From an uncultured Nitrospirales bacterium (GTDB lineage Bacteria > Hydrogenedentota > Hydrogenedentia > Hydrogenedentales > CAILVY01): a DNA stretch of 64,000 nt. Below the pieces are notes generated by a model. The model did no database searches and was not told the origin of the DNA. It worked only from the letters and a program-made list of their open reading frames with translations. The stretch covers positions 143,772 through 207,771 of the forward strand of contig CAYYRW010000006.1 in assembly GCA_964474205.1 (NCBI GenBank), read 5' to 3'. Of this stretch, positions 1-61,126 are shown piece by piece. The position numbers were made by a program, and so were the translations under genes. Numbering within the stretch: position 1 is the first letter of the stretch; every line of letters starts with the position of its first letter.

Positions 1-1342
1 AATCGCGGTTCACATCCAGGCCGAAGCGGGTCTGATAGGCGAGGTCGAGGTTGACGCGTTGTTTGATCAATATGCCCACCCCCATGGTCACGCCAAAGAA
101 GCTATCGGGTTTCCCGGACCCTTTTTGCATGCGGACAGCCTTTTTATTGTTTTTCCCGGTGGCGGGTTCCTGATCATAAAAGAGCCCGCCGCGCACGCTC
201 CAGAGCTGGTCCATGGTTTCCTGCGGTTCTTTCGGCAGAAAGACATATTCGCCGCCGAGCCGTACGGTATACGTGGGCTTGAAATGGGTTCGTTTCCACG
301 GGAGTTCCCTGTTGCTGAAATCCACGAGGGAAAACTTCCGGCCGCGTTCGTCGGTGACGTAAAAACGGTTCCAATCGGTCCGGGTGACGTCCATCGAGAG
401 CATGAACCGGTCATTGAACCGGTAGGCGGTGCCCACGGCGAATGAAGCGGGAAAAGTCACGTGGCGGCGTTCGTGGGCCCGTTTCCGGGCAATTTTCGAA
501 AAACCCGCGTAATCGCTGGAGGGATACATGATTTGATTGGTCACGCTTTTCTTGAAGTAGTTGACGTTTCCTTTGAAGGAGGAATCATAGCGCAGGCCAA
601 TGCTCCATTTGTCGATGGGATTCCATAATGCGCCGAGGGTGACGTTTTCCCCGGAAAAATCCTCGTAGTATTCCTTGGAGCGGGAATAACCATACCCGGC
701 AATGCCGCTGAACATGGAATGGGAACGTTGCTTGGTGGTCTGTTCCCAGCGGTTTTCATTCAGGAAGGTGCTGCGCCAGAGATTCAGCGCCACGCCCACC
801 GAGAGCCGCTGCGTGATCTCGAAGGCGGCGGCGGGTGTGATGGCGCTCAGGCTGCCGCTTTGCCGGAAATCAAAATGTACGCGGTCCGTAAGTTTTTCAT
901 CGAACCGGTGCCAGTTAAAATTCACGGCGCGCGTGAATTCGTATTTTTTCTGGTAGCTCAGCGAGACGCAAACGTTGCGCCCCAACACCAAAAAGGGCAA
1001 CGGATAGGCTGCGCTGAAAAAGTTGATACCCAGGGTGTCGCTGTAATGCCGAGAATCAAATTCACTGTGCCCCTCCGCCTTCAGAATATCCACCACCCCG
1101 CTGTACTCGCCCACCAGCGAAATCTCCGGCTTCTCCAACTGTACCAGCCCCGCCGGATTCCATGACGCGGCCGTCGCATCGTCCGCCACGGCCACAAAGG
1201 CGTCCGCCATGCCCGCCGCGCGCGCACCGGAACCCACGGGCGAAGGGGAAAGCGAAAACTCCGCCTCCTGGCCCGCGGCCCAGGGCGTCATCAGGAGCGT
1301 GAGCAAGGCCCACGCCGCTATGCTCCGGTTATTTGGTGACAA
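1..1342 (-). CDS. FadL/OmpP1/TodX-family outer-membrane channel for hydrophobic compounds (3' end truncated by the window edge)
   Basis: Reverse translation shows a signal peptide (LSPNNRSIAAWALLTLLMTPWAAGQEA), then GARAAGMADAFVAVADDATAASWNPAGL, the classic FadL-family N-terminal motif. Beta-strand-like text such as DKWSIGLRYDSSFKGNVNYF and FFGVTMGVGILIKQRVNLDLAYQTRFGLDVNRD continues to position 1. The start is probably TTG at 1342; the frame opens after an in-frame TAG. It overlaps the stop of the upstream gene by 14 nt. Confidence 0.7.
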   Translation of the reverse strand, partial: MSPNNRSIAAWALLTLLMTPWAAGQEAEFSLSPSPVGSGARAAGMADAFVAVADDATAASWNPAGLVQLEKPEISLVGEYSGVVDILKAEGHSEFDSRHYSDTLGINFFSAAYPLPFLVLGRNVCVSLSYQKKYEFTRAVNFNWHRFDEKLTDRVHFDFRQSGSLSAITPAAAFEITQRLSVGVALNLWRSTFLNENRWEQTTKQRSHSMFSGIAGYGYSRSKEYYEDFSGENVTLGALWNPIDKWSIGLRYDSSFKGNVNYFKKSVTNQIMYPSSDYAGFSKIARKRAHERRHVTFPASFAVGTAYRFNDRFMLSMDVTRTDWNRFYVTDERGRKFSLVDFSNRELPWKRTHFKPTYTVRLGGEYVFLPKEPQETMDQLWSVRGGLFYDQEPATGKNNKKAVRMQKGSGKPDSFFGVTMGVGILIKQRVNLDLAYQTRFGLDVNRD

Positions 1343-47123: not shown

Positions 47124-48208
47124 CTCTGCTCGACCGATATCTTACCCGCCGCGTCCTGCTCAATCTCCTGCAATTGATGACCGCCATGATCTTCATTTAT
47201 GTGGCCATCGACTTTTTAACGGCCCGGCAGACGAACATTTCAAAATACGACATCCCCTTCTTGATGGTCCTCAAGTTCTATTGTGCACAAATACCCATGG
47301 TCCTCTTCCAATACCAGACGGCGGCCCTGGCGGTCCTGGTGGCCGGGTTGATGGTGCTCGGAAAAGCCGCGCAAGACCAGGAAATCACCGCCGCCCTCGC
47401 CGGCGGGATCAGCCTGCGCCGCATTGTGCGCGCCCCCGTGGCCGCCGCCCTGCTCGTGGCCGTGGCGGCCTTCTTTATCGAGGACACGCTGGGCGTACGC
47501 GCGGCACAGTGGCTGGCGCGCATGGACCGGGAGTATTTTTCCCAGTTTCATAAACCGGACAACCCGGGCATCAGTTGGACCAATCTGGGCGGCGAATGGA
47601 CCTGCCACATTCTCAAATTCAATCATGACGCCCTGACGGGACAGGACGTGTACATCCATTCCATCGCGCGCGATGTGGTGAAGGAGATTCGCGCAAAACG
47701 CATTTATTGGGATGAAACCAAGAGCCAGTGGATGCTCGAAGACGGGCGCTGGTTCACCTTCAACCCCAATCAGGAATGGGAACAGAAAGTGGACCGCATC
47801 ACCCAAATCCCCGCCCCCTTTTCAGAGAGCCCCGCCGAACTGTTCGCCCTCGAAAAACCCCCCACCCAAAAATCCCTGGCCGCCCTCCGGCGCGATTTGC
47901 GCCATGCCGGCGCCATGGGCATGCCCGTAAATGCGCACTGGGTCGATTTCCACGCCAAACTCGCACGGCCCGCTCTGTGCTTCGTCATGATCTGGCTCGC
48001 CATTCCATTCGCCATCCGGCTCCGCCGCGGCGGCATAATGATGGGATTCGGACTCAGCATCGGCATCGGCCTCGCCTACCTCATGCTCTTCTACATCACC
48101 ATGGGCCTCGGCCACCTTGACAAACTCACCCCCGTCATCGCCGCATGGTTCGCCAACGCCGTATTCCTCATCACAGGGCTCATCCTCTTCCGGAAAACAC
48201 CCACCTGA
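47120..48208 (+). CDS. lptG: LPS export ABC permease LptG/LptF family (second paralogue)
   Basis: MTLLDRYLTRRVLLNLLQLMTAMIFIYVAIDFL. It overlaps the previous gene by 4 nt. Confidence 0.8.
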   Translation: MTLLDRYLTRRVLLNLLQLMTAMIFIYVAIDFLTARQTNISKYDIPFLMVLKFYCAQIPMVLFQYQTAALAVLVAGLMVLGKAAQDQEITAALAGGISLRRIVRAPVAAALLVAVAAFFIEDTLGVRAAQWLARMDREYFSQFHKPDNPGISWTNLGGEWTCHILKFNHDALTGQDVYIHSIARDVVKEIRAKRIYWDETKSQWMLEDGRWFTFNPNQEWEQKVDRITQIPAPFSESPAELFALEKPPTQKSLAALRRDLRHAGAMGMPVNAHWVDFHAKLARPALCFVMIWLAIPFAIRLRRGGIMMGFGLSIGIGLAYLMLFYITMGLGHLDKLTPVIAAWFANAVFLITGLILFRKTPT

Positions 48209-48338
48209 GCCATCGCCCGCCCCCATCACACAAACCAACCGCCCTCAGCGGTTCTGCCCCCCTTTCATTTCAATCCACGCGGCCCGGAAAACATATTTTT
48301 CGCATATATTTGCCTGCTTTGTGGCAGATAATAACAAG

Positions 48339-48367
48339 TTGACTCATACGCCGGAAAGTAGTACATT
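48339..48367 (+). promoter_or_regulatory. Candidate promoter of the cas operon
   Basis: TTGACT (48339-48344), 17 nt, TACATT (48362-48367), ~90 nt before cas3. Confidence 0.3.
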
Positions 48368-48454
48368 ACCGTTACCGGATGGGATTATCCACTCTATACT
48401 GATGGTTGTGTTGGTTGTTCGTAAAAATTGTATTTAGGCAAGAAAGGGGACTGA

Positions 48455-51145
48455 ATGGATTTGTGTAGGCCGGATACCAAACGATGGATTCCGGAGCTAT
48501 GGGCCAAGACCGATTGTTCAGGTGATACGTTTTCTTACCATCCCTTATTGTTTCACATGCTTGACGTTGCGGCGGTAGCTGGCTTTGTTTGGGATTATCA
48601 TCTGAATTCCAGATTTCGCAATAGAATAGAGCATATACTTCAAGTTACGGAACCTCGCACGTTTATCATGTTTATTGCGGGTGCTCATGATATAGGCAAG
48701 GCAAACCCAAGTTTTCAAAAACGAATTATTAAAATCGCAGAAGGATCAGGACTTCCGTTCTCCAAAAATGATCAAGAGCGACCTCACGGATTCATCAGTG
48801 CCCATGTTTTGGGTGAGTTTCTTGGCGCGGGCTCGGTTTCAGCCCTATTGGGACAGATTGCAGGCGGGCACCATGGTGTCTTTCCACAGTCAATGTATCT
48901 TCAAATGGGAAGAGACTCGATGGGGAATAACGAATGGAAAAATGCTCGGCAAAATCTATTGAGGGAACTTGCCAAAATAGTAGGTTTTGATCATAATAAG
49001 ATAGCCCAATCCCAAAAAGAAATATCGGACCCGATAGTCATTCCGATGCTTGCTGGATTAATTTCGGTCGTGGATTGGATTGGGTCGAATCAAGAGTTTT
49101 TCCCGTGCGCAGCAAAGCGGGGAGAATCCTATTCACTTTGTGCGGAGGAATACTGGGAGAAAGCGAAAAAACAGGCAAAAGAGGCTCTTGAAACACTTGG
49201 CTGGCTACCCAGCGTCACTTATGCACAAGAGGTCGCATTCAAAGATGTCTTTCATGAGTTTGTGCCAAATGCTTTACAGCATACGGTAATCAAACTTATA
49301 TCAAAACGAGATTCGCCCTATTGCATTATTATAGAAGCTCCCATGGGCCATGGAAAAACAGAAGCGGCGCTTTTCGCGGCGGATCTTGCCCTGTGCCGGG
49401 GATTTGCTCGGGGTATGTATGTTGCCATGCCGACTCAAGCCACAGGTAATGCAATGTTCAAGCGGGTATTGGACGATTACCTAAAACATCGTGGGCATCA
49501 GGGCAAGCTGAATCTACAACTCATTCATGGCGACGCATTACTTGCTCAAATAGCAGAAGTCAAAGAGGGTGAAATTCCAAAGTTCACGCCTAACGATATC
49601 GGCGAGGAAGAAGGCGATGTGGAAGCGCAGGCTTGGTTTACTGCGAAGAAGCGGCCATTGTTAGCGCCATTTGGTGTTGGTACTATCGACCAAAGTCTTC
49701 TGAGTGTTCTTCAGACCAAACACTGGTTCGTGCGACTGTTCGGTTTATCAGGAAAAGTTATCATTTTCGACGAGGTCCATGCCTACGATGCCTACATGAG
49801 CACAATTATTGAGCGCCTCCTACACTGGCTCGCCGAACTGGACTGTACAGTCATTCTTCTGTCGGCAACACTTCCAGAAGCCAAGCGCAAGTCACTCGCA
49901 AAGGCCTATTCTGGCCGCGAGGATGTAGAATACAAACCTTATCCGCGTATTACACTGGCTCACCCACGACATTACCCCGTTGAACAAACGGATGAAAAGA
50001 CAGTCTGCGCGGAAGTTCCGATAAACGATACGCGTCAGGTTAACCTGCTATTCGGAAAAACCGACCTGGAATCCCTGAAAGGAACTCTGGCTGAGAGACT
50101 AGAGTATGGCGGGTGCGCCGCCGTGATCTGCAACACGGTCAGCCGGTCCATAGAGGTCTATAAACACTTACGGGATAATCTACAGAATACGGAGTGTTCG
50201 CTTTTCCATGCCCGCACGCTTCAGATGTGGCGGCGTGAGCGCGAAGAGGAAGTTTTGCTTAAATTTGGCAAGCGAAGTCCAAAGGACAGACCTCAGCGTG
50301 CCGTACTTGTCGCTACGCAGGTGATTGAGCAGAGCCTTGATCTGGATTTTGACTTCATGGTCTCGGAGATCGCCCCCGTAGACTTGTTGCTCCAACGTTC
50401 GGGAAGACTTCACCGCCATAATCGTCAGCGTCCGCTGAAGCTGGAAAAACCACAGTTCCTTGTGCTCTGTGACGCCGAAAAGGCTGGACCTCCGCCCGAG
50501 TCTTTCGGCACAAGTATAGAGTTTGTTTACGACCGCTATATTCTTCTCCGCACTTGGTTGACACTGCGAGAGCGGGACAAAATTGAAGTTCCAACTGAAA
50601 TCGAGGCGTTCGTAGAAGCGGTGTATGGGTTTGAAGTTACCCCCAACAATGGTGATTGGCTTGTGGCTCTGTCTGATTCAAAACACAATATGGAATTCGA
50701 ACGCGCTGAATCTGAAAATTCAGCATTACGATTACTGGTCTCAAAACCCAAAGTTCCATCCGATCTCATCGATCAATTTAATGAGCAGTTGGTAGATGAT
50801 GATGACCCTGAAATCCATAAGACCGTTAGGGCGGCTACACGGGAAGGCGACCCCTCGATCACAGTCGTGATGCTGCCAGCGAACACAGCACTCTTAAGCG
50901 AGCCCAACATTCCCGAAATCAGAAGAATGCTCGACCAATCGGCTAAGATCAGCCATCGTGGCGTATTTCATGGAATATGTACGAAAGGGGTAACACCCAG
51001 GGAATGGGCAAAAAATGCCCATCTGCGTCATGCCCGCCTCTTGCGGCTAGATGAGAAAAATTATGGCCGAGTGGAAAATTACACATTGCTGGCAGATGAG
51101 AAGGTGGGCATAGTGATACTTAAGGAGGGTGAAAATTATGGCTGA
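48455..51145 (+). CDS. cas3: CRISPR-associated helicase/nuclease Cas3 (HD + SF2 helicase), type I-E
   Basis: The HD domain has LLFHMLDVAAV and HDIGKANPSFQ. Helicase motifs: EAPMGHGKTEAAL (Walker A), IFDEVHAYD (DExH), SATLP. Confidence 0.95.
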   Translation: MDLCRPDTKRWIPELWAKTDCSGDTFSYHPLLFHMLDVAAVAGFVWDYHLNSRFRNRIEHILQVTEPRTFIMFIAGAHDIGKANPSFQKRIIKIAEGSGLPFSKNDQERPHGFISAHVLGEFLGAGSVSALLGQIAGGHHGVFPQSMYLQMGRDSMGNNEWKNARQNLLRELAKIVGFDHNKIAQSQKEISDPIVIPMLAGLISVVDWIGSNQEFFPCAAKRGESYSLCAEEYWEKAKKQAKEALETLGWLPSVTYAQEVAFKDVFHEFVPNALQHTVIKLISKRDSPYCIIIEAPMGHGKTEAALFAADLALCRGFARGMYVAMPTQATGNAMFKRVLDDYLKHRGHQGKLNLQLIHGDALLAQIAEVKEGEIPKFTPNDIGEEEGDVEAQAWFTAKKRPLLAPFGVGTIDQSLLSVLQTKHWFVRLFGLSGKVIIFDEVHAYDAYMSTIIERLLHWLAELDCTVILLSATLPEAKRKSLAKAYSGREDVEYKPYPRITLAHPRHYPVEQTDEKTVCAEVPINDTRQVNLLFGKTDLESLKGTLAERLEYGGCAAVICNTVSRSIEVYKHLRDNLQNTECSLFHARTLQMWRREREEEVLLKFGKRSPKDRPQRAVLVATQVIEQSLDLDFDFMVSEIAPVDLLLQRSGRLHRHNRQRPLKLEKPQFLVLCDAEKAGPPPESFGTSIEFVYDRYILLRTWLTLRERDKIEVPTEIEAFVEAVYGFEVTPNNGDWLVALSDSKHNMEFERAESENSALRLLVSKPKVPSDLIDQFNEQLVDDDDPEIHKTVRAATREGDPSITVVMLPANTALLSEPNIPEIRRMLDQSAKISHRGVFHGICTKGVTPREWAKNAHLRHARLLRLDEKNYGRVENYTLLADEKVGIVILKEGENYG

Positions 51146-52772
51146 GTATAATTTGATTGAAGAACCTTGGATTCCGTGCATCGACCTTGAGAATAACCGG
51201 CTCGAATACGGCATACGTGACACACTACTGAAAGCTCATGAGTTGCGTGAGATTTGCGACGATTCGCCGTTGGTCACGGTGGCTATACATAGACTGCTTT
51301 TAGCAGTGCTCTATCGGGGGTTAAATGGGCCCAAAGAATTTTCATCATGGAAGAAACTATACGCAAAAGGCTCATTTATCGAACATACGATTCAAGAGTA
51401 TTTTGATAAGTGGAAGCAACGTTTTGATATCCTGGCGGAAAACCATCCATTTTTCCAGATGGGACAATTTGAGACAAAGAAAGCAACCTCTGTTAATCGT
51501 CTTGCAACGGAATGTGCAAGCGGCAACAACGCGACCCTTTTTGACCATAGTAGTGACGAAGAAGAAGTTTTCTGGCTGCCTGCCAGAACTGCGAAATACT
51601 TGGTTGCCTGTCAGTCATTTGCTCTAGGTTTTGGAAAGAGCGGAAATGCAACGATAAATGGAAAAGACGAGACATTGCCCTATTCTTCTGATGCGATAGC
51701 GTTGCGCGGTATAAATATTTGGCTTCAGGGTTCAAATCTTTTCGAAACCCTGATGGTCAATCTGGTTCCCACCGAAGACGACTCATTGCCACCCTGGGAA
51801 CTGGAAAATTCTAACACGCACCGTGACAGACTTCAGGGTAAGAATAAGAAAGCGGTCACCTCCCTGGGCGTTGTAGATCGTTTAACCTGGCAAAGTCGGC
51901 TCATACGACTTATTCCTACTAATTCGACAATTTCAAAGATGTATTTCACACAGGGTCGTTCTGCGGATAAATCCACAGGAGATCCCATGAAAGTCTATCG
52001 TACATCGAGGGTGGAAGGGGTTTCAGCCTTACCGCTCAATAGCGGTAAGGCAGCATGGCGGGATGCTCATTCAATCCTCACAATTCCAAAAGCAGGCAGC
52101 AATGAGCGAAGGCCTGAATGCTTCAATCTTATAGATCGTGCTCGTTCCGCAGCCGTTATCGGTATTTCAAAGCCATTTATGGCTCAGATCGTTGGTTTAG
52201 CATCAGCACCCGGAAAGTCCGGAAAGTTTCTTCTTTGGCGGCACGAACGGATGCCTGTATCTGCCGCCTTATTAGCCGATGTTGACCTGATCGAACGGCT
52301 CGGAGGTTTGCTCCAGATAGCAGAATACGCTGCGTTTGAACTCAACAGCAGAACGAGGCGGATCGCTACACTCTACCTATCACCCAATAGCGACTCTCAA
52401 GGCGGCCACCATCCCGAAAAAGATAAAAGTGCAAAACTTGTTGAGTCAATCGATCCCTCGCCCGCCTACTGGGCTCGGTTGGAGAAACACTTTTTTAGTC
52501 TATTAGAAAATCTCCCCAACGATTGGGATGAGACCAATGGAGACTGGAGACCGGATAATCAGCAAGAAGCTACCCGAATGTGGCGTATCCATGTGAAGGA
52601 AGAAGCCCAACGAGCACTAGAAGAAAGCATTCGGACGCTTGGCACGACCGCGCGGGCGATTCAGGCCATCGCACGCGTTCGTACCGATTTCAACGATGAT
52701 GACCTCAAGCCCCCCCCGCAGAAAGCGGGCATGGCGAAAGGAAAAGAGAAAGGAGGAAAGAAGAAAAGATGA
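51138..52772 (+). CDS. cse1: Cse1/CasA (Cas8e) Cascade large subunit
   Basis: MAEYNLIEEPWIPCIDLENNR... is the typical Cse1 N-terminus. The start ATG 51138 has TAAGGAGG 9 nt upstream. It sits between cas3 and cse2. Confidence 0.85.
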   Translation: MAEYNLIEEPWIPCIDLENNRLEYGIRDTLLKAHELREICDDSPLVTVAIHRLLLAVLYRGLNGPKEFSSWKKLYAKGSFIEHTIQEYFDKWKQRFDILAENHPFFQMGQFETKKATSVNRLATECASGNNATLFDHSSDEEEVFWLPARTAKYLVACQSFALGFGKSGNATINGKDETLPYSSDAIALRGINIWLQGSNLFETLMVNLVPTEDDSLPPWELENSNTHRDRLQGKNKKAVTSLGVVDRLTWQSRLIRLIPTNSTISKMYFTQGRSADKSTGDPMKVYRTSRVEGVSALPLNSGKAAWRDAHSILTIPKAGSNERRPECFNLIDRARSAAVIGISKPFMAQIVGLASAPGKSGKFLLWRHERMPVSAALLADVDLIERLGGLLQIAEYAAFELNSRTRRIATLYLSPNSDSQGGHHPEKDKSAKLVESIDPSPAYWARLEKHFFSLLENLPNDWDETNGDWRPDNQQEATRMWRIHVKEEAQRALEESIRTLGTTARAIQAIARVRTDFNDDDLKPPPQKAGMAKGKEKGGKKKR

Positions 52773-53314
52773 GCCTCGATGCGAGACAAAAAAACTTCAT
52801 AGGCTACCTGCTGAATCTTGCAAAAGAAGGGCAGGAAGACCGGGGTGCGCTCGCTGACCTGCGGAGCGGCCTGGGAAAGAAACCTGGCGAGATGTCCCAC
52901 GTTCACAAGTATGTTGTGCCCTATTTGCCAGAGGACAAATACAAAGATCGTTGGTATTACCTAATTGCGACACTTTTTGGGCTATACCCAAAGCGTCGCA
53001 AGGGGTATAGCCTGGGAGCGGCATTTTGCCCGCTAAAACAAAACAGTGACAGCATGGAGGCACGTTTTGTTGCCTTGCTTAACGCACACCCAGATGATCT
53101 TGGTGATCATTTACGGCATGTAATTAGTCTTCTTAAAGCAAAGGGGCAACCATTGGATTGGTTCCTGTTGTTTAGTGATTTGCTTCACTGGGACCACCAG
53201 GATGGATATGTCCAATTGGGTTGGGCACGGGATTTTTATAAAGGTTTCGAAAAACCAAGTGAAAACAAAAACAACATAAATGACGAAGACTTACAAAAAC
53301 AGGAGAAGGAATAA
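52769..53314 (+). CDS. cse2: Cse2/CasB (Cas11e) Cascade small subunit
   Basis: 181 aa, basic and alpha-helical. Assigned by position between cse1 and cas7e, with 4-nt overlap. Confidence 0.8.
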   Translation: MSLDARQKNFIGYLLNLAKEGQEDRGALADLRSGLGKKPGEMSHVHKYVVPYLPEDKYKDRWYYLIATLFGLYPKRRKGYSLGAAFCPLKQNSDSMEARFVALLNAHPDDLGDHLRHVISLLKAKGQPLDWFLLFSDLLHWDHQDGYVQLGWARDFYKGFEKPSENKNNINDEDLQKQEKE

Positions 53315-53318
53315 AGCC

Positions 53319-54728
53319 ATGAGTGATTCCGGCATCAAGATTGAAGTACACCTGATTCAGAATTTTGCCCCATCGAATCTTAACCGCGACGATACCGGCC
53401 AACCCAAAAGCGCTACCTTCGGCTACTGTCGGCGGGCGCGTATATCCAGTCAGAGCGGCAAACGTGCAGTACGCATGTGGTGGAAGGAACGGGGAACGAT
53501 CTCCGTTGGAAACCGGACGAAACGGCTTCAAGAGAAACTATTTTTGGAGTTGGGTAGGGATAAGAGCTTCCTTGACAATGATCAAAATGACGAATTTCTA
53601 AAGGAAGGTATTCGGGTGTTTACCGACACCTATTATGCTGCATCTGACAAAAAGGAAGCTGAGCAAACTACTGTACTAATCTTTATTGGCCCTGACGAGA
53701 TCGCGGAATGCGCAAAGGTGATAAAGGAACTGTGGAAAAACCCGCAATCTGGAACGAAGACGGAGGACACGAATTCGGAAAATAATAAAGGAAAAAAGAA
53801 AAGTGCCCCCAAAAAAACAGAACAGGCTGGAATTGCAGCTATTGTCTTGAAACGCCGCGAGCATGATGAAAAGATTGGAAAAACCTCAGAGACGGGCGAA
53901 AATGGAGATATCTCCGAAAAGGACAATGAGGAAGACGAGGCTGAAGGAAGTGCGAGCAAAAAGAAAGATGACAAGGAGATCAAGCTTAAGGCCACGGACG
54001 AGGTAACAAACCGAATCAAGAACGCTCAAATCTCCGCGGACATCGCTCTCTTTGGACGCATGCTTGCCGAGCAGCCGGGCCGCAACACGGATGGTTCTTG
54101 CCAAGTCGCCCACCCCATATCCACTCACAAAGTAGACATGGAGATGGATTTTTTCACTGCTGTAGATGATCTGAATCCAAAGGAGGAAACCGGATCTGCG
54201 ATGATGGGTGTAGTCGGCTTTAACAGCGCTTGCTATTACCGCTACGCGCTCGTCGACCGAGATCAACTGGCCCGTAATATCGCTCGCAAAACGAATCGCA
54301 AGAACGGTTCTTGGGAACAGGACCTTGACGCAAACGATTACGAAGAAGCTGACAAAGTCGCCAAGGCCTTTCTTGAAGCAATGGTTTACGCCATTCCGAC
54401 CGGCAAACAGAACTCCTTTGCCGCGCAAAACCTCCCATCCTTCGGCTTGTTTGTGAGGCGACAAGGAGGAGTTCCCATCTCGCTTGCCAACGCATTCAGC
54501 AAACCCGTACGCCCCACAAAAGACGATGACGATCTTATCGGCCTTTCAATAGCCGCGCTGACACGTCATTGGGATGAACTGAAGAAAGCCTATGGCGACC
54601 AAGGTATAGTAAGCACCTCATGCTTTCATATTGGGCAAAAAGACCGCCTCAATAGCCTCGCCTCTTCCGATGAGGGAAGCGTTGATAATGCAATCAAAAT
54701 GGCCTTGGAGGTCAATAAAAAACCATGA
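53319..54728 (+). CDS. cas7e: Cas7e/CasC Cascade backbone subunit carrying an unusual ~100-aa charged low-complexity insertion
   Basis: IEVHLIQNFAPSNLNRDDTGQPKSATFGYCRRARISSQSGKRAVR is the Cas7e N-terminal signature. The start at 53319 has AGGAGAAGGA upstream. The insertion NSENNKGKKKSAPKK...EKDNEEDEAEGSASKKKDDKEIKLK spans 53760-53990. Confidence 0.9.
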   Translation: MSDSGIKIEVHLIQNFAPSNLNRDDTGQPKSATFGYCRRARISSQSGKRAVRMWWKERGTISVGNRTKRLQEKLFLELGRDKSFLDNDQNDEFLKEGIRVFTDTYYAASDKKEAEQTTVLIFIGPDEIAECAKVIKELWKNPQSGTKTEDTNSENNKGKKKSAPKKTEQAGIAAIVLKRREHDEKIGKTSETGENGDISEKDNEEDEAEGSASKKKDDKEIKLKATDEVTNRIKNAQISADIALFGRMLAEQPGRNTDGSCQVAHPISTHKVDMEMDFFTAVDDLNPKEETGSAMMGVVGFNSACYYRYALVDRDQLARNIARKTNRKNGSWEQDLDANDYEEADKVAKAFLEAMVYAIPTGKQNSFAAQNLPSFGLFVRRQGGVPISLANAFSKPVRPTKDDDDLIGLSIAALTRHWDELKKAYGDQGIVSTSCFHIGQKDRLNSLASSDEGSVDNAIKMALEVNKKP

Positions 54729-55351
54729 GTGAAATCCATACCCTTCTTATACGGCTTGAAGGGCCTATGCAATCATGGGGCTATCGCAGCCGTTTTGACT
54801 GCCGCGACACCGCACTTGAGCCGACCCGTAGCGGAATGATCGGCTTGATCTGTGCCGCCATGGGGATTGCCCGAGGTGAGGATATTTCTCGATTCGATGC
54901 GATTCGCATGGGTGTCCGCGTAGACCAACAAGGTAGGCCCGAATGCGACTACCAAACTGCACTTGACGTAATTAAGGCAGATGGAAAAGGAAAAGACACC
55001 GTCCAGTCTTGGCGTGATTACCTTGCCGACGCTTCATTCACAGTTGGTTTGGAGTCGAGGGATCTTAACCTGTTGTGCGAAATAGCAGGGGCTCTACAGT
55101 CGCCCATTTGGCCGTTATTTCTGGGACGAAAAGCATTCCCGCTTTCGGTTCCTCCTATCTGTGAAAAGGACCCTATCAAGCCCGGCGTTTTAGAGGACCA
55201 TCTTTTGAGCGGAACAACAAATGATCGTGTTGTTTTAGAAGCAAGTGATGGTGAAAGAAGTCAAAATGACTGGCCTTTGTGTTTTGGTGAGCGTCACTTT
55301 AAGCCACGCGCTCTTCACACGGCGTTTGACAAGAAAGGAGACCATGAATGA
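54725..55351 (+). CDS. cas5e: Cas5e/CasD
   Basis: MSEIHTLLIRLEGPMQSWGYRSRFDCRDTALEPTRSGMIGLICAAMG is the Cas5e N-terminal signature (LRLxGPMQSWG). Confidence 0.9.
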   Translation: MSEIHTLLIRLEGPMQSWGYRSRFDCRDTALEPTRSGMIGLICAAMGIARGEDISRFDAIRMGVRVDQQGRPECDYQTALDVIKADGKGKDTVQSWRDYLADASFTVGLESRDLNLLCEIAGALQSPIWPLFLGRKAFPLSVPPICEKDPIKPGVLEDHLLSGTTNDRVVLEASDGERSQNDWPLCFGERHFKPRALHTAFDKKGDHE

Positions 55352-56136
55352 CAGCGTGCAACGATGCCCCGCTTTATCTTTCAAGGCTTTTTTTAAATCC
55401 CGGTTCTCGTCAAATTTGGAAAGAGTTGGCGGAACCTTACGAGATGCACAGGACTTTGATGCATGCTTTTGAACAGCACCCTATTATGAAAGGACAAAAT
55501 GCACGGGAGCTTTTTAACGTTCTTTTTCGGGCTGATACAGAAGAACGCCGAGACTGGGTATCCGTATATGTTCAATCCACAGTGGAACCAGACTGGAGTT
55601 TTCTACATAAACACAGGGACTATCTCGCGTCTGACGCCCCAAGACCAAACCCGGCTTTAAAGAATGTAACAGAGTCCTACAAGATGCTTAAGTGTGGGCA
55701 GCTATTAACCTTTCGATTGCGCGCCAATCCAACCAAACGCATATCAAAGCCAATCAATGGCAACGAGGCATTGAAGGGAAAGCGTGTTGGTTTGTTGCGG
55801 GAAGAAGAACAAATCGCGTGGCTTATCAGAAAAGGGCATGAACGAGAAAAGGGCATTTCCGGCGGTTTTGAAATCCTGGAGAGAAAAGTAAAGGATGATA
55901 ATGGCAACGTCCGGTTAGTTCCCTGTGTTACCGTGAGTCAAGAAGGCAAGCAAGATGGGCGAAAACGCGAAGAGGGCCAACCGCATAAAACAACACATCT
56001 GGCAGTTATTTTTGATGGGATATTGCGTATCACGGATGCTGATGCCTTCCGCAACACTCTTATCTCGGGTATTGGTTCGGGGAAGGCGTTTGGATTTGGG
56101 TTGTTGAGTGTGGCGAGGTGCCGGGGGCAGGGATAA
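55348..56136 (+). CDS. cas6e: Cas6e/CasE pre-crRNA endoribonuclease
   Basis: PLYLSRLFLNPGSRQIWKELAEPYEMHRTLMHAF and a C-terminal G-rich loop GIGSGKAFGFGLL. It is about 60 aa longer than E. coli CasE. Confidence 0.85.
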   Translation: MTACNDAPLYLSRLFLNPGSRQIWKELAEPYEMHRTLMHAFEQHPIMKGQNARELFNVLFRADTEERRDWVSVYVQSTVEPDWSFLHKHRDYLASDAPRPNPALKNVTESYKMLKCGQLLTFRLRANPTKRISKPINGNEALKGKRVGLLREEEQIAWLIRKGHEREKGISGGFEILERKVKDDNGNVRLVPCVTVSQEGKQDGRKREEGQPHKTTHLAVIFDGILRITDADAFRNTLISGIGSGKAFGFGLLSVARCRGQG

Positions 56137-56137
56137 T

Positions 56138-57118
56138 ATGCGCACGCAGGATTTTCATGAGTTGGCGAAGGTAAGCGACCGGTTGACGTATTTGTATGTG
56201 GAACATGCGAAGATCGAGCAGGAAGCGAAGGCGATTGCGGTGCATGACGCGGCGGGGATGACGCCGGTGCCGTGCGCGACATTGGCATTGTTGATGTTGG
56301 GGCCGGGAACCTCGATTACGCACGCGGCGGTGTTGGCGCTGGCGGACAACGGGTGTCTTGTGGTGTGGTGCGGGGAACAGGGGGTTCGATTCTATGCTTC
56401 GGGTCAGGGCATTACGCGGAATGCGCGAAATTTGATGCGTCAGGCGGCATTGAGTTCTCGCAAGAGCACGCGGCTGCAGGTGGTGCGCCGATTGTATGAA
56501 ATGCGGTTTGAGGAAGAACTCGACCCGGAATTGACCTTGGAACAGATTCGCGGGATGGAGGGTGTGCGGGTTCGGGATACCTATGCACGGTTGAGCCGGG
56601 AAACGCAGGTACCTTGGTCGGGGCGAAGTTATAAGCGGGATGATTGGAAGCACGCGGACCCGATTAACCGGGCGCTTTCGACGGCCAACGCATGTTTGTA
56701 CGGGGTGTGTCACGCCGCGATTGTGGCGGCGGGGTATTCGCCGGGGCTGGGTTTCGTTCATATCGGAAAGCAGCTTTCGTTCGTGTATGACGTGGCGGAT
56801 TTATACAAAGTGGAGACCACGGTGCCCGCGGCATTTCACGCGGTGGGGGAGGGGGTGGGCTATCTTGAAACGAACGTGCGCAAACGCTGCCGGGATATGT
56901 TTGCGAATGAACATCTGCTATCGCGGATTGTGGAGGATATCGGGTATGCGTTGAACGTTCCGGAAGCGGTGGACGATGCCGCCGAGGTGGATTTCGACGC
57001 GGATGCGGCGCATCCCGGGGCATTGTGGGACCCCGAACGGGGTGAAACCGCCGGGGGCGTGAGTTACGGGTCAGAGGCTTCAACCGGGGAGATTTCCAAT
57101 GACGGTGATGATTCTTGA
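56138..57118 (+). CDS. cas1: Cas1e integrase with acidic C-terminal tail
   Basis: It is collinear with E. coli YgbT: ...GPGTSITHAAVLALADNGCLVVWCGEQGVRFYASG...VHIGKQLSFVYDVADLYK... A ~45-aa D/E-rich tail is present. The track start at 56108 is less likely than 56138. Confidence 0.95.
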   Translation: MRTQDFHELAKVSDRLTYLYVEHAKIEQEAKAIAVHDAAGMTPVPCATLALLMLGPGTSITHAAVLALADNGCLVVWCGEQGVRFYASGQGITRNARNLMRQAALSSRKSTRLQVVRRLYEMRFEEELDPELTLEQIRGMEGVRVRDTYARLSRETQVPWSGRSYKRDDWKHADPINRALSTANACLYGVCHAAIVAAGYSPGLGFVHIGKQLSFVYDVADLYKVETTVPAAFHAVGEGVGYLETNVRKRCRDMFANEHLLSRIVEDIGYALNVPEAVDDAAEVDFDADAAHPGALWDPERGETAGGVSYGSEASTGEISNDGDDS

Positions 57119-57371
57119 ACGGGTTTCGCCTTCACTGCGGGGGGAACTCACCCGCTGGATGCTGGAACCGAAAGCAGGGGTGTTTGTGGGAACGATTTCC
57201 GCGTTGGTGCGGGAAAAACTGTGGCTTAAAGTATGTAGCAGCGTAGGCGATGGCGCCTGCATGATCCTGTGGCGGACCAATACGGAACAAGGCTTCAAAA
57301 TTGACTTCTGGGGCAATACCTCCCGGCATGTGCATGACTGGGAGGGACTTCAACTCATTACTCGTGTATAA
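57099..57371 (+). CDS. cas2: Cas2e
   Basis: MTVMILERVSPSLRGELTRWMLEPKAGVFVGTISALVREKLW...WRTNTEQGFKIDFWGNT is collinear with E. coli YgbF. It overlaps the cas1 3' end. Confidence 0.9.
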   Translation: MTVMILERVSPSLRGELTRWMLEPKAGVFVGTISALVREKLWLKVCSSVGDGACMILWRTNTEQGFKIDFWGNTSRHVHDWEGLQLITRV

Positions 57372-57390
57372 TTACCAATGAAATCAATGT

Positions 57391-59919
57391 GTTTTCCCCA
57401 CGCGTGTGGGGATGAACCGGTGAAACAGAGGGTTCTGGTGGTGGTGGAATAGTTTTCCCCACGCGTGTGGGGATGAACCGAGAGACAAACGCATACGCCG
57501 CCGCCAGCGGGAGTTTTCCCCACGCGTGTGGGGATGAACCGACGCCACCGCAATTCACAAAAAAAGTCTCCCTGTTTTCCCCACGCGTGTGGGGATGAAC
57601 CGCCGATGAAGAGAACACGGATTGCATAGATTACGTTTTCCCCACGCGTGTGGGGATGAACCGTAATAATCCTCACCCAGGCTGTTTTGTTTCACGTTTT
57701 CCCCACGCGTGTGGGGATGAACCGGCACGGCCACGGCGGGGGACGACGGCACGGCCGTTTTCCCCACGCGTGTGGGGATGAACCGACACCGAAGAACCTC
57801 CCTTCGAGCCTGAGCCAGTTTTCCCCACGCGTGTGGGGATGAACCGAAATACGGAAAGGAAGACACTCGCGGCTATGGGTTTTCCCCACGCGTGTGGGGA
57901 TGAACCGACCGTGATTCCGCGAAAGAGTGGATCATAAACGTTTTCCCCACGCGTGTGGGGATGAACCGCAAACCGCTTTCCGATGCCGTGAACAAGTTCC
58001 GTTTTCCCCACGCGTGTGGGGATGAACCGAAAAAAACCCTTACATTATATATAATTGTGCAGTTTTCCCCACGCGTGTGGGGATGAACCGATGCTGGCGA
58101 TTGAGGCTACCCGGAAGCTGGTGTTTTCCCCACGCGTGTGGGGATGAACCGAACTTCTTTCCCCACAAATGAACCCCGAAACCGTTTTCCCCACGCGTGT
58201 GGGGATGAACCGCATTTTGCGAAAAAACTACAGGAGAGCTAACCGTTTTCCCCACGCGTGTGGGGATGAACCGTAGTACCACGCGCAATATCAAGGGATA
58301 AAGCGTTTTCCCCACGCGTGTGGGGATGAACCGACGTTGATATTTCCGCCGCCTACTATGCCGCCGTTTTCCCCACGCGTGTGGGGATGAACCGACGGCC
58401 CACCGCTGGAATATGTACTCCAGGTAGTTTTCCCCACGCGTGTGGGGATGAACCGACATGTTTACGGCTGCACATCATATACCGCAAGTTTTCCCCACGC
58501 GTGTGGGGATGAACCGGCAATGTGGCATACGGCGCAGGCGATACTTGAGTTTTCCCCACGCGTGTGGGGATGAACCGAAATGGATGGCGGCGCCGGGGCG
58601 GTATCGGGGGTTTTCCCCACGCGTGTGGGGATGAACCGCAACAAGTGCAGTGCAATCATCGCCGCGTTCGGTTTTCCCCACGCGTGTGGGGATGAACCGA
58701 CTACCCCTGTACGGTATACCTCACTCATCACGTTTTCCCCACGCGTGTGGGGATGAACCGGCTAATCCCCGAACTGCTCCGTGAGTGGTGGCGTTTTCCC
58801 CACGCGTGTGGGGATGAACCGACGGCGCGATCTGGAACTGAGTCAGCCGAAGAGTTTTCCCCACGCGTGTGGGGATGAACCGTAAAAATTACCACAGCAT
58901 GCACAATTATATATGTTTTCCCCACGCGTGTGGGGATGAACCGACGCTTACCTGAAAAATGTGCACACATGGGCGGTTTTCCCCACGCGTGTGGGGATGA
59001 ACCGGAACTACATAAGGTTTTAATACCACCACTCCAGTTTTCCCCACGCGTGTGGGGATGAACCGTGTCTTGCGTTTACGCGCGGCGTATTTGTCCAGTT
59101 TTCCCCACGCGTGTGGGGATGAACCGTCCAGCAATGCCGTTGCCCTTGGCGGTGCCGGGTTTTCCCCACGCGTGTGGGGATGAACCGCGCGGCTGTAGCG
59201 GATGCGGAACAAGCCAGTTGTTTTCCCCACGCGTGTGGGGATGAACCGAATCAGTACTGGAACGGTCACTTGCTATGGAGGTTTTCCCCACGCGTGTGGG
59301 GATGAACCGATAAATCCTGTTTATGAGGTAGATACTCCGGAGTTTTCCCCACGCGTGTGGGGATGAACCGTGATGGTTGTGAATGGCGGCGGTGTTCTAT
59401 CCGTTTTCCCCACGCGTGTGGGGATGAACCGGCACCGCAACGGCGGGGAACAGAGGCACCGCAGTTTTCCCCACGCGTGTGGGGATGAACCGTCTACCTG
59501 AAAAGCATAGGGGCCACAACATGAGTTTTCCCCACGCGTGTGGGGATGAACCGGAGCGAGACAATGAGAACGAAATACCAGATGAGTTTTCCCCACGCGT
59601 GTGGGGATGAACCGACTGATTACAGCATATACACAAAAACGACAATGTTTTCCCCACGCGTGTGGGGATGAACCGTGAATAAAATCTCTCATGTCTCACC
59701 TATCGTAGTTTTCCCCACGCGTGTGGGGATGAACCGAAACCGTGCCCGTGGAGCCTTGGGGGATTGTGGTTTTCCCCACGCGTGTGGGGATGAACCGTTG
59801 AGTGATTATTATACTATAATAAGAAGAACGTTTTCCCCACGCGTGTGGGGATGAACCGGAGGACCTTGAGCAGGATGCTCAAGCCACGATGTTTTTCCCG
59901 TACGCGGCAGGGGGAAAGG
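57391..59919 (+). CRISPR. Type I-E CRISPR array: 41 canonical 29-nt repeats GTTTTCCCCACGCGTGTGGGGATGAACCG, 32-nt spacers (one 31-nt), plus one degenerate terminal repeat
   Basis: Repeat starts fall at 57391+61k (k=0..14), then 58305+61k (k=0..25); the last canonical repeat is 59830-59858. The repeat is collinear with the E. coli I-E repeat (GxGTTCCCCGCGCCAGCGGGGATAAACCG) and has the same palindromic core. All spacers are unique. A degenerate repeat lies at 59891-59919 (gtttttcccgtacgcggcagggggaaagg). Confidence 0.97.
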
Positions 59920-60175
59920 ACGGAATTTGCCACAAGAGAGCCCAAAGAGCACAGAGTGTTTACCGTGCCTGGGGGGGGAGAACGGAATTTACCACAAGAG
60001 AGCCCAAAGAGCACAGAGTGTTTGCCGTGCTGGGGAGGAAAGAACGGAGCTTGCCACAAGAGAGCACAAAACGCGCAGAGTGTTTCCCGTGCTGGGGGGG
60101 AAGAACGGAGCTTGCCACAAGAGAGCACAAAGCGCACAGAGTGTTTGCCGTGCCGGGGGAGGGAGGGGGCAGTCC
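59891..60175 (+). repeat. Decayed CRISPR trailer: five ~61-nt units of degenerate repeat plus near-identical pseudo-spacers
   Basis: Units start at 59891, 59958, 60020, 60082 and 60143. The repeat part (gtttgccgtgctgggggggaagaacgg) is a mutated form of the canonical repeat. The spacer parts are pairwise near-identical (aatttgccacaagagagcccaaagagcacagagt x2, agcttgccacaagagagcacaaa(a/g)cgc(g/a)cagagt x2). Confidence 0.7.
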
Positions 60176-60377
60176 ATAATGTAATGTAGGGATTAAGCAG
60201 TGGTACTTGAAAAAGCGGCTGCAAGCGGGCGCAGTCCAAAGTATATGGAGAAGGTGGCTTCTAGGGGCTGCATTTATTACAATGCACAGATTCTTTGACT
60301 TTGTCTTTAATATCAATTATATATAGAATTTATTGAAATTATGCGTGTATGGGTTGGGAATTCCTGGAATAAATTTC

Positions 60378-60426
60378 TTGACTTCTTGTTGTGCGGGTGC
60401 TATTCTTTTTGTGAAATCCTTAACAG
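60378..60426 (+). promoter_or_regulatory. Candidate sigma70 promoter with overlapping Rex operator upstream of rex
   Basis: TTGACT (60378-60383), 17 nt, TATTCT (60401-60406), then TTGTGAAATCCTTAACAG (60409-60426). The Rex box consensus is TTGTGAAnnnnTTCACAA; the left half matches 7/7, the right 5/7. Confidence 0.45.
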
Positions 60427-60448
60427 CGTTAAAAAAGTATCAGTTATT

Positions 60449-61126
60449 ATGCCGGATAAAGTGACACAAAGCCCATCGGAAAAAACCGTAGAACGGTTGA
60501 GTTTGTATCGCTACCTACTGTACGGTATACTGGCGGAAGGTGAGAGAAATGTGTTTTCTCATGCGCTGGCGGGGATGGCGGCGGTGAGCAGTGCTCAAGT
60601 GCGTCAGGACTTGATGGTGCTTGGGTACAGTGGCAGTCCGAATCAGGGTTATGAAGTGGGTAAGTTGATCGCGAGCATTACGGAGTTTTTGGATGATGCG
60701 CATGGGCGCAACATTGCGCTGGTGGGCATTGGTAACTTGGGGCGGGCGATCTTGTCGAATTTTTCGGGCCATCATTCGCGGCTGCAGATCGTGGCGGCGT
60801 TCGATATCAATTGGCAGGTGGTGAACCGGCTGGTGCATGGATGCTGGTGTTATCCGATGGAGAAGCTGGGTTCGGTGATCCGGGAGCAGGACATTTCGCT
60901 GGGGATTGTCACGGTGCCTCCTTCGGCGGCGCAGGTGGTGGCGGATCAGTTGTGCGAACATGGCGTGCGGGGCCTGTTGAATTTCGCCCCGGTGCGCTTG
61001 CGGGTTTCGGAAGATGTGTATGTGAGCAATCTCAACATAACGGTTGCTTTGGAAAAGGTGGCTTATTTTGCCCATCACGCCCCGGTGAGGGTGGAGACGC
61101 CGTCAAGAGAGGAAGCAAAGGTATGA
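60449..61126 (+). CDS. rex: Redox-sensing transcriptional repressor Rex
   Basis: ERLSLYRYLLYGILAEGERNVFSHALAGMAAVSSAQVRQDLMVLGYSGSPNQGYEVGKLI is a winged-helix N-terminus. IALVGIGNLGRAIL is the Rossmann NADH site. The start at 60449 is used; the track's 60341 start contains the promoter/operator. Confidence 0.85.
   Translation: MPDKVTQSPSEKTVERLSLYRYLLYGILAEGERNVFSHALAGMAAVSSAQVRQDLMVLGYSGSPNQGYEVGKLIASITEFLDDAHGRNIALVGIGNLGRAILSNFSGHHSRLQIVAAFDINWQVVNRLVHGCWCYPMEKLGSVIREQDISLGIVTVPPSAAQVVADQLCEHGVRGLLNFAPVRLRVSEDVYVSNLNITVALEKVAYFAHHAPVRVETPSREEAKV

Follow-up and report, generated by a model that had tools for sequence, protein, structure and literature searches.

[quoted passage not shown] The operon has the order cas3-cse1-cse2-cas7-cas5-cas6e-cas1-cas2, in which all eight genes show the expected Pfam matches, and the CRISPR array adjacent to it fits the 29-nt repeats and 32-nt spacers of type I-E (Table 1). 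The system is complete and, apart from the insertion in Cas7e, ordinary. A search of the published literature for a description of this insertion found none.

Table 1. Features of the type I-E locus and of its Cas7e (positions in the window).
Feature	Position	Strand	Basis
cas3	48455..51145	+	Pfam Cas3_HD + Cas3-like_C_2
cas8e (cse1)	51129..52772	+	Pfam CRISPR_Cse1, 289 bits
cas11 (cse2)	52769..53314	+	Pfam CRISPR_Cse2
cas7e (cse4/casC), 469 aa	53319..54728	+	Pfam PF09344, PDB chains, Foldseek
Helix A of fingers domain, aa 125-139, DEIAECAKVIKELW, left border of insertion	53691..53735	+	AF2, conservation
Insertion proper, aa 140-213, 74 aa	53736..53957	+	Missing from short-form relatives and E. 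coli CasC
Module 1, basic/polar patch, aa 140-168, ...NKGKKKSAPKK...	53736..53822	+	KKGK conservation, AF2
Module 2, amphipathic helix B, aa 169-189, QAGIAAIVLKRREHDEKIGKT; consensus ETVEGIASIVKKVRDFDAK	53823..53885	+	Conservation, AF2
Module 3, acidic disordered block, aa 190-213, SETGENGDISEKDNEEDEAEGSAS	53886..53957	+	AF2, charge, length
K-rich helix, aa 214-238, KKKDDKEIKLKATDEVTNRIKNAQI, not inserted	53958..54032	+	Profile alignment, charge, AF2
cas5e	54725..55351	+	Pfam Cas_Cas5d
cas6e	55348..56136	+	Pfam CRISPR_assoc
cas1 and cas2	56108..57371	+	Pfam Cas_Cas1 + Cas_Cas2CT1978
CRISPR array, 41 copies of 29-nt repeat GTTTTCCCCACGCGTGTGGGGATGAACCG, period 61 nt	57391..59858	+	

The identification of the protein as Cas7e, made in an earlier note on this DNA, is confirmed by the type I-E operon around the gene and by a match to PF09344 (Cas_CT1975) of 344.1 bits against a cutoff of 26 (E 1.7e-102). 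This match covers aa 8-440, which map to just 337 profile positions. Sequence searches retrieved PDB Cas7e chains with E values of 2.5e-40 to 5e-33, and Foldseek placed the predicted model on the Cas7e of 5u07, 8yb6 and 4qyz with a probability of 1.0, recovering the RRM palm, helical fingers and thumb hairpin of the Cas7e fold. The top matches in the PDB were all Cas7e chains; their TM scores, normalised to the target, were low (0.39-0.46), owing to disorder of both thumb and insertion in the model of the monomer. We took the ATG at 53319 as the start codon; an upstream ATG at 53280 would give 482 aa, but all homologues start at MSDSG or MNDSG. With a stoichiometry like that of E. coli Cascade, each complex would hold six copies of the insertion.

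The limits of the insertion follow from several alignments. Solved Cas7e chains (314-378 aa) align to the query as two blocks that skip its middle, and the spacing between W139 and S239 is 99 aa in the query versus 14-25 aa in close relatives of the same clade. W139 is nearly invariant among homologues and stands at the end of helix A, which AF2 predicts at aa 125-140 (pLDDT 85-92) and which aligns to T. fusca Cse4 up to about residue 130. On the other side, a profile alignment pairs aa 214-238 with the K-rich helix of E. coli CasC (residues 128-168, including K137/K138/K141/K144), and the true insertion is therefore restricted to aa 140-213, its end abutting exactly the start of the alignment to the E. 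coli helix. A MAFFT pairing of E. coli helix A with helix B of the insertion was overruled by the profile and phmmer alignments. The earlier note had described a low-complexity insertion of ~100 aa. The peptide it quoted is indeed encoded in frame at 53760-53990 (aa 148-224 of Cas7e), and the PF09344 match, the PDB chains and the relatives all speak for a real insertion, but one of 74 aa; the K-rich KKKDDKEIKLKATDE at the C-terminal end of the quoted peptide belongs to the conserved lysine helix and is not inserted. The remaining excess of ~30 aa over E. coli is located elsewhere, for example in a ~20-aa segment at aa 322-345.

Charged residues make up a fraction of 0.42 of the insertion versus 0.28 of the remainder of Cas7e, hydrophobic residues 0.16 versus 0.40, and purines 70% of the coding strand versus a comparison value of 53%. 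Among the 74-aa windows of long ORFs in the 64-kb stretch, only 0.24% are as highly charged. AF2 models of the query and of the homologue P0014 predict a disordered polyampholyte (pLDDT 26-45 over aa 141-171 and 190-226) with one ordered exception, helix B at aa 172-189. In the first module, the KKGK motif is 75-84% conserved among the 92 homologues that carry the long form; this module is predicted to be disordered in the query (pLDDT 33-45) and to form a beta-hairpin of moderate confidence in P0014 (pLDDT 67-72). Helix B reaches a pLDDT of about 89, then 67, in the query and about 85 in P0014; in the long forms its G is conserved to 95%, its I to 97%, its A to 86% and its hydrophobic positions to 99-100%. 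The acidic block is predicted to be disordered in both models (pLDDT 26-36) and has a median length of 32 aa and a median net charge of -8 in the 92 homologues, being net negative in 97% of them, while its sequence identity is merely 26% versus 71-80% for the core. It is tethered directly before the basic K-helix, which is net positive in 99% of the long forms (median +4) and whose ordered part is predicted at aa 227-236 (pLDDT 86). The alternation of basic and acidic blocks first read from the sequence is real and falls in the fingers domain; the term low complexity fits the charged and largely disordered parts but not the well-conserved amphipathic helix.

Whether related genomes share the insertion and whether it is under purifying selection had been raised in the earlier note; the first can be answered in the affirmative, and for the second a dN/dS below 1 is a sign of constraint. 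Of the best 120 homologues, 92 carry a counterpart; these come from several phyla and share the order of KKGK patch, amphipathic helix, acidic block and basic K-helix. The W139-S239 length has a sharp mode: 47 of the 92 long forms fall at 90-93 aa. The long form is scattered through the clade tree, with about 7 lineages among the 120 sequences having short forms, and intermediate forms without single modules also exist. Several lineages appear to have lost the insertion, and since short and intermediate forms exist, the arm is dispensable. In two pairs of relatives with unsaturated synonymous sites, dN/dS was about 0.36-0.42 for the insertion versus 0.08-0.19 for the core, a nonsynonymous evolution 2-4x the core rate; comparisons with the query itself were unusable for this purpose because of saturation at synonymous sites (pS 0.76-0.82 in the core).

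Length variation at this position is a feature of the whole family: a proxy for the length of the fingers ranges over 139-214 residues (5th-95th percentile), with E. coli (141) at the 7th and the query (220) at the 96th percentile. Other Cas7e lineages have charged insertions of their own at this position, which is a general hot spot for them. Outgroup Cas7e of 45-50% identity have a similar pattern of helix, basic, acidic and K-helix segments there, and in many of the other long Cas7e the insertion is mixed, K/E/A-rich and coiled-coil-like, with no separate acidic block. A profile of the query's insertion matched solely same-clade fragments among 149 diverse Cas7e representatives; homology to the charged insertions of other long lineages was not detectable, the outgroup P0129 being marginal (E 0.02). 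A single shared mechanism for all long Cas7e insertions is doubtful.

Taken together, the segment is very probably a lineage-specific accessory arm of 74 aa in a surface loop of the Cas7e fingers (the 'pinky'), between helix A and the lysine-rich helix. The function of the latter has been studied in E. coli: on Cas7.5 and Cas7.6 it forms a vise that grips the PAM-proximal dsDNA, and mutation of the four lysines to alanine raises the KD for dsDNA from 1.14 nM to >1000 nM and abolishes immunity (PMC4787809). Our tentative preference is that the flexible arm acts as an electrostatic tuner of DNA binding by this helix. The KKGK patch and the short amphipathic helix would lead into an acidic tether of ~25-30 aa and from there into an extra-basic K-helix; helix B would probably be docked on the fingers domain or a neighbouring subunit. 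The acidic block would compete intramolecularly for the basic K-helix and KKGK patches as a weak built-in DNA mimic, and this competition would make free Cas7, and likewise the six copies in the backbone, less prone to non-specific binding of DNA and RNA. Real dsDNA would push the acidic block off the vise, and the extra lysines might then add affinity or reach. The short-form relatives' Cascade is evidently functional without the arm, which would therefore be an accessory and non-essential part.

We count in favour of such a tuner that the insertion adjoins, by alignment, the helix required for dsDNA binding in E. coli, and that the charge architecture is kept in the 92 homologues despite the low identity of the acidic block. 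The net charge of the K-helix is +4.3 where the acidic block is present versus +1.4 where it is not, and long and short forms alike come out close to neutral over W139-S239 as a whole (-0.8 and +0.6, respectively). The conservation of helix B, the narrow length mode and a dN/dS below 1 are further signs of constraint, and the similar segment pattern of outgroup Cas7e also speaks for a tuner. The short and intermediate forms, the faster nonsynonymous evolution and the differently built insertions of many other long Cas7e count against it, and the charge balance could merely reflect selection for solubility. In a stronger version, which we regard as unlikely, the Cas7e of this clade would carry a tethered DNA mimic, with six acidic arms masking the lysine-rich helices until dsDNA displaces them. 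If this were true, non-specific DNA and RNA binding would be gated and, as a side effect, the arms would compete for the lysine vise with anti-CRISPRs that mimic DNA or bind Cas7. The type I target search would then have a regulatory layer that is absent from the minimal models based on E. coli and T. fusca, and other Cas7e lineages may have versions of this device in their own variable charged insertions.

Almost as likely as the electrostatic tuner is a near-neutral, tolerated expansion of a surface loop, either harmless or a solubility-aiding 'entropic bristle', without a specific role in DNA recognition. The length variability of the site across the family would be expected for such a loop, as would the failure of the query's profile to find the insertions of other lineages, the repeated occurrence of short forms and of intermediates lacking single modules, and the low identity and raised dN/dS; isolated Cas7e is also poorly soluble (PMC12740422). 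Against this reading stand the conservation of helix B, almost at the level of core positions, the persistence of the KKGK motif, the narrow length mode, charge blocks that keep their sign in 97-99% of the sequences and a dN/dS clearly below 1.

Docking of a partner such as Cas3, Cas1-Cas2, Cas11, the thumb of a neighbouring Cas7 or a host factor, with helix B as the binding element and the charged segments as linkers, is quite unlikely in our view. A conserved and confidently predicted amphipathic helix amid disorder is typical of short binding elements, but nothing points to a partner. The operon content is equal in long-form and short-form loci, and a comparison of four loci showed a Lys-rich C-tail on Cas8e and an acidic C-tail on Cse2 beside long and short Cas7e alike, with no co-variation with the arm.

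We rate as very unlikely a role against anti-CRISPRs, in which six charged arms would shield the backbone and the lysine vise from Cas7-binding or DNA-mimic proteins or serve as decoys for them, the latter an idea of the earlier note. AcrIE9 and AcrIE10 target Cas7e, and several type I-F Acrs contact several Cas7 subunits simultaneously (PMC12740422); an arms race would also be in keeping with the rapid evolution of the arm and the scattered occurrence of long and short forms. On the other hand, none of the observations points specifically to a decoy, the dN/dS of the two pairs gives no indication of positive selection, architecture and length are conserved rather than diversifying, and an Acr for this clade is not known.

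An artefact of sequencing, assembly or annotation (a chimera, a frameshifted read-through or a gene on the opposite strand at 53633-54019) has a vanishingly small probability: the purine-rich stretch does leave a stop-free antisense ORF of 128 aa, but this ORF lacks a Pfam match and is an expected by-product of GAA/AAG/GAG-rich coding sequence, 92 homologues carry the insertion in frame, and tandem repeats and Rfam matches are missing. The identical Cas7e is also encoded on a contig from a separate JGI metagenome assembly (L002), which matches the query DNA at 99.96% identity over 4.8 kb with a sole gap of 2 bases within cse1; this disposes of the assembly chimera considered earlier. As to the origin of the segment, Tandem Repeats Finder reported nothing in 53300-54750 that would point to replication slippage, and an Rfam search of 48000-61000 gave no match to a structured RNA. 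A captured domain is not indicated, since the insert had no Pfam match at E up to 1, and helix B is not a recognisable duplicate of helix A (hhalign probability 0.7%).

The interest of the arm lies in a sizeable environmental clade in which a conserved helix and a charge-patterned disordered arm adjoin the dsDNA-gripping helix. If the arm modulates DNA binding, it would offer a natural means of adjusting how specifically Cascade-based tools bind and how they search, and would account for some of the unexplored variation in Cas7e length; if it is neutral, the site would be a safe place for engineering tags or fusions, six per Cascade. To our knowledge, the mechanism of type I-E Cascade has been worked out entirely on short members of the Cas7e family, those of E. 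coli, T. fusca and a few others (314-378 aa).

The closest comparison for the query is E. coli K-12 CasC (363 aa; PDB 4QYZ, 4TVX, 5H9F), which belongs to the same PF09344 family, occupies the same operon position and, by sequence and fold search, has the same layout of palm, fingers and thumb at an overall identity of about 33%. Its K-rich helix with K137/K138/K141/K144 is retained in the query, where the clade has an additional KKKxKR cluster, and the distance from helix A to this helix is about 5 residues in E. coli versus 74 in the query. The best PDB matches in sequence and structure, T. fusca Cse4 (373 aa, 5U07/5U0A) and the CasC of HNH Cascade (378 aa, 8YB6), lack an insertion at this site, as do the other solved Cas7e, and none of the PDB chains matched is a long form. 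Short-form members of the clade (for example P0067 with 382 aa, P0108 with 386 aa and P0060 with 394 aa) are 69-73% identical to the query overall and have an identical operon architecture; they have 14-25 aa between W139 and SADIALFGRM, and in those with 14 aa the K-helix is without its lysine cluster as well. Outside of CRISPR systems, acidic autoinhibitory tails beside basic DNA-binding surfaces are known, for example in HMGB1. The arm may resemble this tail in that a disordered, D/E-rich tract is tethered beside a basic DNA-binding element and that conservation lies in its composition, not in its sequence. It differs in that there is no homology and in that the tract of the query is an internal loop, which would occur six times in a multisubunit RNA-guided complex.

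The type I-E cas operon of the window is complete and is followed by its CRISPR array, and the locus is an ordinary type I-E system (see table). Its Cas7e begins with the MSDSG start common to all homologues, shows every defining feature that could be tested and is a bona fide member of the family. GC content steps sharply from mostly 0.43-0.55 between cas3 and cas6e (48455-56100) to 0.55-0.625, with strong positive GC skew, over cas1 and most of cas2 (56100-57300), and the adaptation and interference modules may have different origins. Only 19 nt separate the cas2 stop codon from the first CRISPR repeat (57371-57391). The orientation of the repeat (…GGGGATGAACCG) nevertheless implies that the array is transcribed starting on the cas2 side. 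A leader, if there is one, would need to overlap cas2 at its 3′ end. About 50 nt past the last repeat lie tandem copies of a unit whose period is almost that of the CRISPR unit; they show no similarity to the CRISPR repeat and have no Rfam match.

Features of the type I-E locus and of its Cas7e, with positions on the window
Feature	Position (nt)	Cas7e residues	Strand	Description
cas operon	48455-57371		+	cas3, cas8e/cse1, cas11/cse2, cas7e, cas5e, cas6e, cas1, cas2; expected Pfam match for each
Cas8e C-terminus	52707-52769			Lys-rich tail KPPPQKAGMAKGKEKGGKKKR
Cse2 C-terminus	53246-53311			polar, acidic tail FEKPSENKNNINDEDLQKQEKE
cas7e	53319-54728		+	469 aa
Antisense ORF	53633-54019		-	128 aa, stop-free, rich in S, F and L
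Insertion proper	53736-53957	140-213		charged arm
Basic/polar stretch		140-168		KKGK motif, 75-84% conserved
Amphipathic helix B		169-189		consensus ETVEGIASIVKKVRDFDAK; G 95%, I 97%, A 86%; hydrophobic positions 99-100% conserved
Acidic block		190-213		rich in D, E, S, A, G; median 32 aa; net charge -8; net negative in 97%; K/R nearly absent
Basic K-helix		214-238		not inserted; net +4; net positive in 99%
Second, smaller clade-specific insertion	54282-54353	322-345		RKTNRKNGSWEQDLDANDYEEADK
CRISPR array	57391-59858			41 x 29-nt repeat, 61-nt period; downstream of cas operon
Tandem unit	59910-60165			~62 nt, four copies, 79-87% identical

An earlier note described a highly charged insertion of about 100 aa in this Cas7e at 53760-53990; these nucleotides are in frame and encode residues 148-224, exactly the peptide it reported. 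The presence of an insertion is borne out by three comparisons. The 337 positions of the Pfam profile PF09344 are stretched over residues 8-440. In a phmmer search of all PDB chains, the solved Cas7e chains (type I-E HNH Cascade, 8YB6; 9UER; T. fusca, 5U07; E. coli, 4QYZ; 8JI9) align as two blocks, with the middle of the protein left out between them. Finally, the segment between W139, a nearly invariant residue, and S239 of the SADIALFGRM motif, 99 aa in our protein, spans 70-114 aa in 92 of the 120 best database matches (58-68% overall identity), 35-69 aa in 6 and 14-34 aa in 22. The size had been overestimated: in the clade profile, "KKKxKRPKLKxxKEIxDRIK" (residues 214-238) aligns to residues 128-168 of E. 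coli CasC, its lysine-rich helix K137/K138/K141/K144, so that this K-helix is a counterpart and the insertion is limited to 74 aa. What remains of the 106 aa by which this Cas7e exceeds E. coli CasC lies elsewhere, such as the ~20 aa inserted after the thumb region, where W332 is nearly invariant.

A metagenome contig assembled independently at JGI (L002, sample 3300022666) is 99.96% identical to the window over 4.8 kb and encodes the same Cas7e, which rules out an assembly chimera or other artefact. The sole gap between the two is a GG in cse1 (51953-51954) that is absent at L002:125 and would frameshift cse1 in the JGI assembly; the difference reflects either an error of assembly or natural variation. 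No tandem repeats were found around the insertion, Rfam gave no match in the region, and the insertion has no homologue among the Pfam families. Nor is it an internal duplication. The antisense ORF, without a Pfam match, is what a coding strand so rich in purines would be expected to leave on the other side.

Charged residues make up 42% of the insertion and hydrophobic ones 16%, versus 28% and 40% in the remaining Cas7e, and purines 70% versus 53% of the coding strand; among comparable windows from the long ORFs of the stretch, just 0.24% are as highly charged. Alignment of the 92 long forms defined four conserved modules, including the K-helix. AlphaFold2, given the 120-sequence alignment, predicts disorder at residues 141-171 (pLDDT 33-45) and 190-226 (26-36), a confident helix at 172-189 (about 89, then 67) and a helix at 227-236 (86). 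A model of a typical member, P0014, agrees (helix B about 85, acidic block about 28-31) and folds the basic patch into a beta-hairpin with moderate confidence; the best fold-search matches were all Cas7e chains. The W139-S239 segment stays near neutral in long (-0.8) and short (+0.6) forms, and the K-helix carries +4.3 with the acidic block versus +1.4 without it.

The arm directly adjoins the counterpart of the E. coli lysine-rich helix in the profile alignment. In E. coli, mutation of the four lysines raises the dsDNA KD from 1.14 nM to >1000 nM and abolishes immunity, and PAM-proximal dsDNA is held in a vise formed by these helices of Cas7.5 and Cas7.6 (PMC4787809). Because the charge blocks are conserved and separate, we tentatively read the arm as a device for electrostatic tuning. 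Its acidic block, tethered beside an extra-basic K-helix and kept in composition but not in sequence, would transiently mask basic surfaces, so that free Cas7 and the six backbone copies bind less nucleic acid non-specifically. At the vise the tether would be displaced by duplex DNA, with helix B anchoring the arm.

Almost as likely is a near-neutral expansion, a tolerated or solubility-enhancing loop, which the rapid evolution and repeated loss of the arm both favour. Mean pairwise identity among long forms falls from 0.71-0.80 in the core to 0.51 in the K-helix, 0.46 in helix B, 0.44 in the basic patch and 0.26 in the acidic block. Purifying selection, a point raised together with sharing by relatives in the earlier note, is detectable but relaxed: in the two usable pairs, most others being saturated at synonymous sites, dN/dS was 0.36 in the insertion versus 0.08 in the core (L006-L007) and 0.42 versus 0.19 (L005-L008), estimates that are rough because they rest on 74 codons. 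The length mode is sharp, 47 of the 92 long forms having 90-93 aa. In a neighbour-joining tree of the Cas7e core, built without bootstrap, long forms occur all over the clade and short forms at about seven separate positions, and intermediate forms miss single modules. The simplest reading is an ancestral arm deleted repeatedly, and hence dispensable. Long forms occur in Syntrophobacteraceae, Smithella, other Deltaproteobacteria, Thermoanaerobaculia, Eubacteriales, Nitrospirae and Dehalococcoidia, and short forms in Planctomycetaceae, among others; this host range indicates horizontal spread.

The shortest forms (P0067, at L003:6001-7149, P0085, P0088 and P0113) have just 14 aa between W139 and SADIALFGRM, e.g. 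DGDTTKVRIKGAQV. They have also lost the lysine cluster of the K-helix, whose equivalents in E. coli are essential for dsDNA binding, and their operons are seemingly intact. In an uncultured Bacteroidetes MAG (508 kb contig, L014:2501-3656), the Cas7e homologue, translated from its start, hits a stop codon after 91 aa and may be frameshifted or pseudogenised.

Docking of a partner protein is an unlikely and unsupported role, as operon content does not co-vary with the arm and neither do the tails of Cas8e and Cse2, which in the four loci compared are of like kind whether Cas7e is long or short. A shield against anti-CRISPR proteins, some of which do bind Cas7e (PMC12740422), is about as improbable and draws no specific support from these results.

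Clustering at 50% identity reduces the whole clade to essentially one of 885 Cas7e representatives (E up to 1e-30). The median length of diverse Cas7e representatives is 393 aa (5th-95th percentile 349-455). With the distance from the NRD to the DIALxGR motif as a proxy for fingers length, the median is 162, E. coli has 141 (7th percentile) and our protein 220 (96th percentile). Charged insertions at the site of the arm are also present in long representatives, where they follow immediately on the "...W[DE]" that closes helix A. Many are K/E/A-rich and coiled-coil-like in appearance; a profile of our clade's insertion did not detect the insertions of these representatives. The nearest outgroups (P0129, P0134 and P0141; 45-50% identity) share a similar helix/basic/acidic/K-helix order. 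A literature search found no description of the arm. The arm is common throughout an environmental clade and keeps its architecture there, yet it is dispensable; its function is plausibly DNA-related. It distinguishes these proteins from the solved Cas7e structures, all of which are short forms and none of which carries it.
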